From assembly GCF_988243305.1 (NCBI RefSeq), contig NZ_OZ547136.1: 64,000 bases of DNA. One strand, given 5' to 3'. The position numbers and the translations under genes were made by a program. Positions 32,275 through 32,888 of the stretch are shown piece after piece. Position 1 is the stretch's first letter. The number at the start of each line of letters is the position of its first letter. Under the pieces are notes generated by a model. That model was not told where the DNA came from. It ran no database searches and was given only the letters and a program-made list of their open reading frames with translations.

Positions 32275-32565
32275 GCTGGCCTGAAGCATTAACAACGGTA
32301 GGAATTGCGATGGCGGTGGCGCTGGTGGTGTATTCGATTTGCCGCTGGGGATAAAAACGGTTTGCGGGAAAAGGAGAGTTAAGTAGAATTGCAGCGGGTG
32401 CTTGAGGCTATCTGTCTCAGGCATGAACACCAAAAGGCAGATAGAGAAAAGCCCCAGTTAACATTACGCGTCCGGCAAGACGCTTAACATTAATCTGAGG
32501 CCATATCTATGCTCTACACACGTAGGTTAGCCTCTTACGTGCCGAAAGGCAAGGAGAAGCAGGCT

Positions 32566-32721
32566 ATGAAGCAGCAAAAGGCGATGCTAATCGCCCTGAT
32601 CGTCATCTGTTTAACCGTCATGGTGACGGCACTGGTAACGAGGAAAGACCTCTGCGAGGTACGAATCCGAACCGGCCAGACGGAGGTCGCTGTCTTCACA
32701 GCTTACGAACCTGAGGAGTAA
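32566..32721 (+). CDS. hokD: Hok/Gef-family type I toxin (RelF/HokD-like)
   Basis: 51 aa MKQQKAMLIALIVICLTVMVTALVTRKDLCEVRIRTGQTEVAVFTAYEPEE; in-frame upstream extension is mok-like; hairpin plus T-run at ~32790-32815. Confidence 0.85.
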   Translation: MKQQKAMLIALIVICLTVMVTALVTRKDLCEVRIRTGQTEVAVFTAYEPEE

Positions 32722-32888
32722 GAGACCCGGCGGGGGAGAAATCCCTCGCCACCGCTGATGTGTCAGGCATCCTCAACGCACCCGCACTTAACCCGCTTCG
32801 GCGGGTTTTGTTTTTTCTGGTCGTTCTGGTTTACAATCCATCCGTCAGCCTGAACAACTGGCACCTGCTGCGCCAGCAGAGAAAACAG

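Follow-up and report, generated by a model that had tools for sequence, protein, structure and literature searches.

The window analysed here is a 64,000-nucleotide (nt) stretch of contig NZ_OZ547136.1 (RefSeq assembly GCF_988243305.1), and the element in question is a small hok-type toxin locus at positions 32361-32816, with its antisense RNA gene on the opposite strand. The sequence anatomy, family membership, predicted RNA pairings and conservation of the locus were computed. Coordinates are those of the window throughout.

The toxin gene (hok, 32566-32721, plus strand) was identified from the list of open reading frames (ORFs) and by Pfam and PHROG searches. It is preceded by a Shine-Dalgarno (SD) sequence, GGAG (32553-32556), and the 51 codons from the ATG at 32566 specify MKQQKAMLIALIVICLTVMVTALVTRKDLCEVRIRTGQTEVAVFTAYEPEE. 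This 51-residue product covers the whole Pfam HOK_GEF profile (PF01848, positions 1-42 of 42; 81.4 bits, cut-off 22), scores 112 bits against PHROG 251 ('MokW-like host killing') and is identical to Escherichia coli K-12 HokD at 50 of 51 positions, the sole difference being Met19 in the window and Ile19 in K-12. The generic NCBIfam Hok models, against which it scores below the cut-offs (48.8 versus 73), were not used for naming. HokD is toxic and served as the toxic control in a survey of Hok proteins (preprint, 10.1101/2025.08.07.668861).

A longer frame, mok, overlaps hok in frame and comprises 70 codons (32509-32721, plus strand; ORF list), co-linear with mokW of phage 933W. The mok SD, GAGG (32497-32500, plus strand), is located 8 nt 5' of the ATG at 32509-32511; both the SD and the ATG are invariant across homologues, and mok codons 2-5 are hypervariable among loci. 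Both frames are free of frameshifts and stop codons in the window. Translation of hok would be coupled to that of mok, as in the family. The first-pass annotation had proposed, within 32356-32830, a HokD/RelF-like member of the Hok/Gef family with an in-frame mok-like extension upstream and a hairpin plus T-run terminator at the 3' end. The Pfam score and the K-12 identity bear out the family assignment, the ATG at 32509 with its GAGG and its mokW counterpart bear out the extension, the terminator was recovered by a terminator scan (below), and the whole module including the hok promoter falls inside that interval.

The Tyr47 codon of hok (UAC, 32704-32706, plus strand) sits in UUACGAA (window 32702-32710), a context that seems to resemble the anticodon-loop motif of tRNA-Arg that TadA uses. 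The local hairpin at this codon is weak (-0.6 kcal/mol). A-to-I editing of the hokC, hokD and hokE mRNAs is reported to recode the Tyr47 position to Cys (10.1101/2025.08.07.668861).

A putative hok promoter was read from the sequence at 32361-32389 (plus strand), consisting of -35 TTTGCG (32361-32366), a 17-nt spacer and -10 TAGAAT (32384-32389). The -10 ends 6 nt before 32396, the first base of a match to the Rfam leader family RF01794, and it is from roughly the -10 onwards that the loci are conserved, the -10 and +1 included. A full-length mok-hok mRNA of ~417-421 nt (32396-32816, plus strand) is predicted. Its 5' end was placed from the RF01794 start and the onset of conservation, and its 3' end from the intrinsic terminator at 32790-32816 (plus strand), for which the terminator scan gave a 7-bp G+C-rich hairpin (32790-32807) followed by TTTTGTTTTTT ending at 32816. 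The only call made by a generic promoter scan, 32484-32513 (plus strand), was rejected; it lies inside the region targeted by the Sok antisense RNA described below and has no support from homologues.

The RF01794 match on the plus strand (32396-32571) spans all 157 model positions at 117.1 bits (gathering score 59). Compared with the 117 bits of the window, hokW of 933W scored 113.5 bits and the R1-type plasmid locus 87 bits; K-12 hokD gave no match to this model. Under the name 'sok antitoxin (CssrC)', the family in fact models the sense strand of hok between the +1 of the mRNA and the start codon of hok, not the antisense strand. The match therefore marks an intact hok leader, on the strand opposite to Sok, and it backs the leader and not Sok directly.

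The regulatory elements of the mRNA, all on the plus strand, are named here after Le Rhun et al. (PMC9841398). The translational activator element tac (GGGUGCUUGAGG) occupies 32396-32407 and the fold-back inhibitory element fbi (CCUCAACGCACCC) 32771-32783. Between them lie ucb, the anti-SD of mok (AGCCCC, 32450-32455), which is complementary to tac, and dcb (UAGCCUC, 32528-32534), which is complementary to the mok SD region and overlaps the Sok -10, an overlap described for plasmid R1 (PMC9841398). By homology, dcb would act in the truncated mRNA. A 9-bp stem-loop with a GAAA loop in the 3' untranslated region (UTR; 32729-32750) was present in every fold, full-length or truncated. It is likely to be the hairpin that protects the 3' end of the processed mRNA, the processing site being placed by analogy; the last stem-loop of Tr-hok in R1, mutation of which destabilises the mRNA, matches it in position (PMC9841398). 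An isrK-like match over the 3' UTR hairpin and terminator (32730-32811, plus strand) scored 27 bits (gathering score 50) and was gone at the gathering threshold. The resemblance to IsrK, a Salmonella prophage small RNA, is probably a generic two-hairpin terminator similarity.

In the minimum-free-energy (MFE) fold of 32396-32812, tac and fbi form 12 base pairs with one bulged C (32777), and the mok SD, through G32500, G32499 and G32497, is paired with C32452, C32453 and C32455 of ucb and so sequestered in this predicted structure. The duplex of tac with the 3' UTR has an energy of -21.5 kcal/mol, compared with -14.3 +/- 2.2 kcal/mol for shuffled 3' UTRs, and was reached by 7 of 1000 shuffles. 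As a positive control, the R1-type plasmid locus was folded in the same way and likewise gave tac/fbi pairing in its MFE structure. Of 68 distinct homologous loci whose leaders are intact, 67 have the same tac, and 11 variant positions were seen in fbi: five carry C-to-U changes giving G-U pairs, five fall on the bulge and one breaks a pair. Closure of the full-length hok mRNA by tac/fbi pairing is thus a prediction of the folding model. In the MFE fold of the 3'-truncated RNA, tac pairs instead with 32414-32422 in a metastable 5' hairpin (-16.9 kcal/mol). By duplex energy, tac is complementary to ucb (-10.7 kcal/mol) and dcb to 32493-32504 at the mok SD (-9.3 kcal/mol). Constraining the truncated RNA to tac/dcb pairing cost +5.9 kcal/mol, which is no measure of the tac/ucb open form.

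On the minus strand, a Sok antisense RNA of 71 nt is predicted at 32447-32517 (5' end ~32517, 3' end ~32447). Its ends were mapped by alignment from the annotated sokW of 933W (2591-2661 of locus L001 in our set). The predicted fold (-28.6 kcal/mol) has the shape of SokW: the first 15 nt stay unpaired as a 5' tail, and a long imperfect hairpin and UUUU follow. The Sok promoter (32524-32552, minus strand) comprises -35 TTGCCT (32547-32552), a 17-nt spacer and -10 TAACCT (32524-32529) and is homologous in position to the TTGCGC-17-TATCCT of the R1-type locus. In promoter, spacer, hairpin and U-tail, no base differs between the window and sokW of 933W and the Sakai prophage Sp5. A Sok gene with promoter, free tail and terminator hairpin thus appears intact opposite the mok initiation region.

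Antisense control of this type has been studied in hokW-sokW (Takada et al. 2021, PMC8621323). There, sokW expressed from its own promoter neutralises toxic HokW; protection is lost when primer YO-421 converts the -10 from AGGTTA to CGGCTC (hok-strand sequence), and it depends partly on RNase III and Hfq (PMC8621323).

The first-pass annotation had not settled the integrity of Sok and of the translation-activation elements and had suggested alignment to hok/sok loci; disruption of these elements, it proposed, would mark an inactive relic. The alignments located both mok and the Sok promoter. Given the RF01794 match, the tac/fbi pairing and the identity of promoter and hairpin to sokW, the elements and the antisense gene appear to be present and undisrupted, and the locus does not have the features of such a relic.

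Conservation was expressed as pairwise diversity (pi) across 68 distinct homologous sequences. It is lowest in the hok coding sequence (CDS; 0.008), followed by the Sok stem (0.012), the Sok promoter with the hok SD (0.019), tac with the 5' hairpin (0.037) and the 3' UTR up to fbi (0.056); immediately outside the module pi is 0.36-0.40. The module is thus 10-40 times less diverse than its flanks. Together with the pairing-neutral changes in fbi, this low diversity indicates purifying selection on both the RNA structure and the protein.

Of 5426 complete E. coli genomes, 4950 contain the 475-bp segment 32356-32830 at 80-99% identity, with a median of two places per genome and a maximum of nine; a copy covering at least 80% of the segment is present in 3907 of the genomes. 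The E. coli annotation of homologous loci reads 'type I toxin-antitoxin system toxin HokD'. A further 110 phage records carry the segment, among them 933W, VT2-Sakai and many Stx phages, and the 933W record annotates mokW, hokW and an antisense sokW RNA. The 51-residue Hok ORF is therefore not a chance reading frame, since the segment is widespread in E. coli genomes and phage records.

We accordingly read 32361-32816 as a complete hok/mok/sok type I toxin-antitoxin module of the hokD/hokW subtype, with a probability of roughly 0.88. It is an accessory gene ('moron') within the nin-equivalent region of a lambdoid prophage of E. coli. The kind of system, the subtype and the prophage location have all been described previously.

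Several observations weigh against this reading. The hok and Sok promoters match the sigma-70 consensus poorly, the -35 of hok being weak, and the generic consensus promoter scan missed both. The -35 region of hok is also unconserved between loci (pi 0.40 upstream of ~32376-32384). The tac/ucb open form was not the MFE structure of the truncated RNAs; the R1-type control fails likewise, so that MFE folding is no guide to this form. The ends of the hok mRNA and Sok itself are predicted for the window copy from sequence alone. As summarised in the preprint survey, the intact chromosomal hokA, hokB and hokC gave neither post-segregational killing (PSK) nor activation by rifampicin (10.1101/2025.08.07.668861), and an intact hok sequence is therefore no guarantee of a PSK phenotype. 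Finally, hokW is located elsewhere in Sp5 and 933W, so that a copy in the nin region may not share its link to induction.

Upstream of hok, the prophage carries a CI-type repressor gene with HTH_3 and Peptidase_S24 domains (25936-26709, minus strand), followed in gene order by a YdaT-like gene and an HTH_36 replication-type gene, and then by a DUF551 gene (31372-32274). Downstream are a 92-residue ORF of PHROG 1212, a family of unknown function (32889-33167), DUF968/HNH (33169-34227), RusA (34228-34608) and the Q antiterminator (34605-35426). Beyond Q are a DNA methylase, two tRNAs (37100-37172 and 37276-37349, plus strand) and a lysozyme, and an STnc100 RNA was found at 38049-38238 (plus strand, 132 bits). 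The flanking early genes (26914-35426) and hok share a strand. A DicF RNA (24586-24637, minus strand, 76.7 bits) marks the prophage as Qin-like. The placement of hok in the nin region, put forward by the first-pass annotation, agrees with its position between the CI/replication-type genes and DUF968/RusA/Q. The same annotation had contrasted the window with Qin, in which hokD adjoins relBE; the K-12 alignment shows the end of relE directly upstream of hok, and the whole 64-kb window holds no homologue of RelB or RelE. No homologue of K-12 Rem was found in the 64-kb window either, and hok is single-copy there. The ORF at 32889-33167 was considered as Rem and rejected; it has no similarity to Rem and belongs to PHROG 1212. 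Among the first 80 IMG/VR loci, the hok-DUF968 gene order occurs in most and relBE flanks hok in three.

Between DUF551 and the hok promoter lies a hydrophobic ORF of 27 codons, MSWPEALTTVGIAMAVALVVYSICRWG (32271-32354, plus strand), whose start overlaps the DUF551 stop (ATGA) and which stops shortly 5' of the hok -35. Conserved upstream of hok in 933W/Sp5 and in roughly one in three IMG/VR loci, it is unannotated in the RefSeq records and has no PHROG match. Primer YO-432 of the hokW study (PMC8621323) starts on this ORF.

By analogy with R1 hok and hokW-sokW, a mechanism can be proposed in which transcription, processing, Sok action and toxicity of the window copy are inferred from homology. 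The weak promoter would give a hok mRNA of ~420 nt, the promoter and both ends being those deduced above. In this RNA, tac/fbi pairing is predicted to close the molecule and ucb to mask the mok SD, and the closed form, as in R1 hok, would be neither translated nor bound by Sok. Slow 3' trimming to the hairpin at 32729-32750 would remove fbi, after which tac/ucb pairing would free the mok SD. A convergent promoter within the mok/hok-SD region would meanwhile supply an unstable 71-nt Sok RNA, whose free tail would pair with the mok start region and block translation of mok and hence of the coupled hok, with RNase III cutting the duplex; activity of this kind is known from the 93%-identical hokW-sokW. 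If the supply of Sok stopped, Hok would be made and enter the inner membrane, the membrane potential would collapse and growth would stop or the cell would die.

For a prophage copy, the most relevant trigger would be prophage induction, the alternatives being prophage loss and shut-off of host transcription by a superinfecting phage. Lysis help on induction, prophage addiction and phage exclusion are candidate roles for the nin-region copy. Among these only lysis help has direct support, obtained with a copy at another prophage position. When Sp5 is induced with mitomycin C, sokW is lost and HokW is found in the inner membrane; deletion of hokW-sokW delays growth arrest and halves phage release, i.e. 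on induction the module speeds growth arrest and doubles release (PMC8621323).

A functional module might instead serve chiefly for abortive infection or exclusion, Sok decaying when a superinfecting phage stops host transcription. In favour of this, the nin region is a common site of accessory genes. R1 hok/sok is reported to lower both the plating efficiency and the plaque size of T4 (cited in PMC8621323 and PMC10305079). The preprint survey found hok genes ~4-fold enriched in prophages but no enrichment of hok beside defence systems (10.1101/2025.08.07.668861), and the sole direct experiment on a prophage copy points to release of the phage itself (PMC8621323). We regard exclusion as the chief function as a possible but rather unlikely outcome.

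Less likely still is that Hok is made mainly by read-through of the early-right operon colliding with the convergent Sok promoter, so that the locus would be an accessory to lysis timed by induction and not an autonomous toxin-antitoxin system. The co-direction of hok with the flanking early genes (26914-35426) and the unconserved -35 region of its own promoter would fit this arrangement, as would the behaviour of Sp5, where it takes RecA-dependent induction for sokW RNA to vanish and HokW to appear, through a route as yet unexplained (PMC8621323). On the other hand, the hokW of 933W/Sp5 lies outside the nin region and yet responds to induction, so that read-through from PR is not required there; the conserved -10 and +1 argue for a dedicated hok promoter, an intrinsic terminator follows the module, and the read-through proposal is itself pure inference.

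That the module is a complete-looking but silent or non-functional relic, hitch-hiking prophage DNA like the K-12 hok loci, is very improbable: although K-12 hokD is truncated and lacks the promoter, leader, mok start and sok, the promoters of the window are weak by consensus and the negative results for PSK and rifampicin with hokA, hokB and hokC (summarised in 10.1101/2025.08.07.668861) are on record, each element missing in K-12 is present in the window, the mok and hok frames are uninterrupted, the 93%-identical hokW-sokW is functional (PMC8621323), and a diversity 10-40 times below that of the flanks, with pairing-neutral changes in fbi, argues against decay.

A complete hok/mok/sok module thus remains the preferred reading, and within it one short patch behaves differently. 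A 22-nt island at 32502-32523 (both strands) has a pi of 0.31 inside the near-invariant module (pi 0.008-0.04). It corresponds to the single-stranded 5' tail of Sok with its +1 region and to mok codons 2-5, and flanks the invariant mok ATG. Alleles were counted in 120 IMG/VR loci retrieved via the conserved flanks, independently of the allele. Fifteen alleles were found, the seven common ones in 22, 19, 18, 18, 17, 11 and 6 copies; the window carries a common allele, CATATCTATGCTCTACACACGTAGG (18 of 120 loci). Avoidance of a shared allele by co-resident copies is not supported: in a smaller first sample all four same-genome pairs had differed, but 8 of 20 same-genome pairs share their allele, against 13.9% of random pairs, a comparison in which some of the same-genome pairs may be assembly duplicates.

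The plain reading of this diversity is relaxed constraint on a cis-antisense pair, which does not easily explain a value ~40-fold above that of the adjacent CDS. Tentatively, and with the odds against it, the alleles could be specificity classes of the antitoxin RNA under balancing or diversifying selection. Escape from Sok-mimicking RNAs of competing phages, or incompatibility groups, would be examples. If true, selection on these alleles would be relevant to the number of near-identical toxin modules under RNA control that are found together in a single cell.

Two variant leaders were observed among the homologues. The allele CATATCTATGCGACACATAGAGA, present in L014 and 17 other IMG/VR loci (window equivalent 32509-32568), has a net 1-nt deletion that puts mok out of frame with hok. 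In this class mok is cut to 19 codons, and its UGA stop shares bases with the hok AUG (AUGA), which suggests that termination-reinitiation coupling may replace the in-frame overlap; the Sok -10 is TAATCT. In locus L162 (contig IMGVR_UViG_651053022_000007, 4529-4863, minus strand), two complete RF01794 leaders in tandem (106.7 and 101.1 bits), each with a separate Sok-tail allele, precede a single hok, an arrangement that would amount to a duplicated leader/Sok unit.

hok/sok is the founding family of type I toxin-antitoxin systems, and the window locus matters little as a discovery. The hokD/hokW subtype is annotated in 933W (GenBank AF125520) and was tested experimentally in 2021, and the RefSeq label hokD is found in thousands of E. 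coli genomes. The annotation of the window ought nevertheless to carry mok, hok and the antisense Sok RNA gene, whereas the RefSeq records hold the hok CDS only.

The closest known system is hokW-mokW-sokW of 933W and Sakai prophage Sp5 (AF125520; PMC8621323), with 93% DNA identity from the promoter through fbi. The layout is the same (a 70-codon mok and a 51-residue Hok), and tac, ucb, the mok SD, the Sok hairpin, the Sok promoter and the hok SD are identical. The two differ at ~7 of 22 nt in the Sok tail, mok beginning MLYTR in the window and MLNTC in 933W, and at the C-terminus of Hok (FTAYEPEE in the window, FVDYESEK in 933W). Homology to 933W is lost just 3' of fbi, where the window terminator is replaced by other sequence. 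hokW lies near the prophage end in Sp5/933W, beside a YgiW-like gene, whereas the window hok is in the nin region.

In hokD (relF) of the K-12 Qin prophage, the CDS (50 of 51 residues identical) is accompanied by a near-identical 3' UTR, fbi and terminator (window 32552-32815), and the downstream neighbourhood of DUF968 (ydfU) and Q is as in the window. Homology ends 14 nt 5' of the hok ATG, where the K-12 sequence becomes the 3' end of relE. K-12 hokD therefore lacks the promoter, tac, ucb, mok start, Sok and Sok promoter, all of which are present in the window; the window in turn lacks relB, relE and rem of Qin. Since relBE flanks hok in only 3 of 80 IMG/VR loci and K-12 gives no RF01794 match, the relBE-hokD arrangement is the rare, truncated derivative, and the window shows the standard complete form. 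K-12 hokD, the textbook reference, is consequently a poor model for the prophage locus.

With the type system, hok/sok (parB) of plasmid R1, the window shares the order of elements from tac to fbi: tac, metastable hairpin, ucb, Sok target, mok SD and ATG, dcb with the Sok promoter, hok SD, hok, 3' hairpin and fbi. Both are full-length RF01794 matches and both form tac/fbi in the MFE fold, with a correlated change in the paired elements (GGCGC/GCGCC in R1, GGGUGC/GCACCC in the window), although the R1 Hok is only 42% identical to that of the window. The R1 system is plasmid-borne with a proven role in PSK, whereas the window copy is borne by a prophage.

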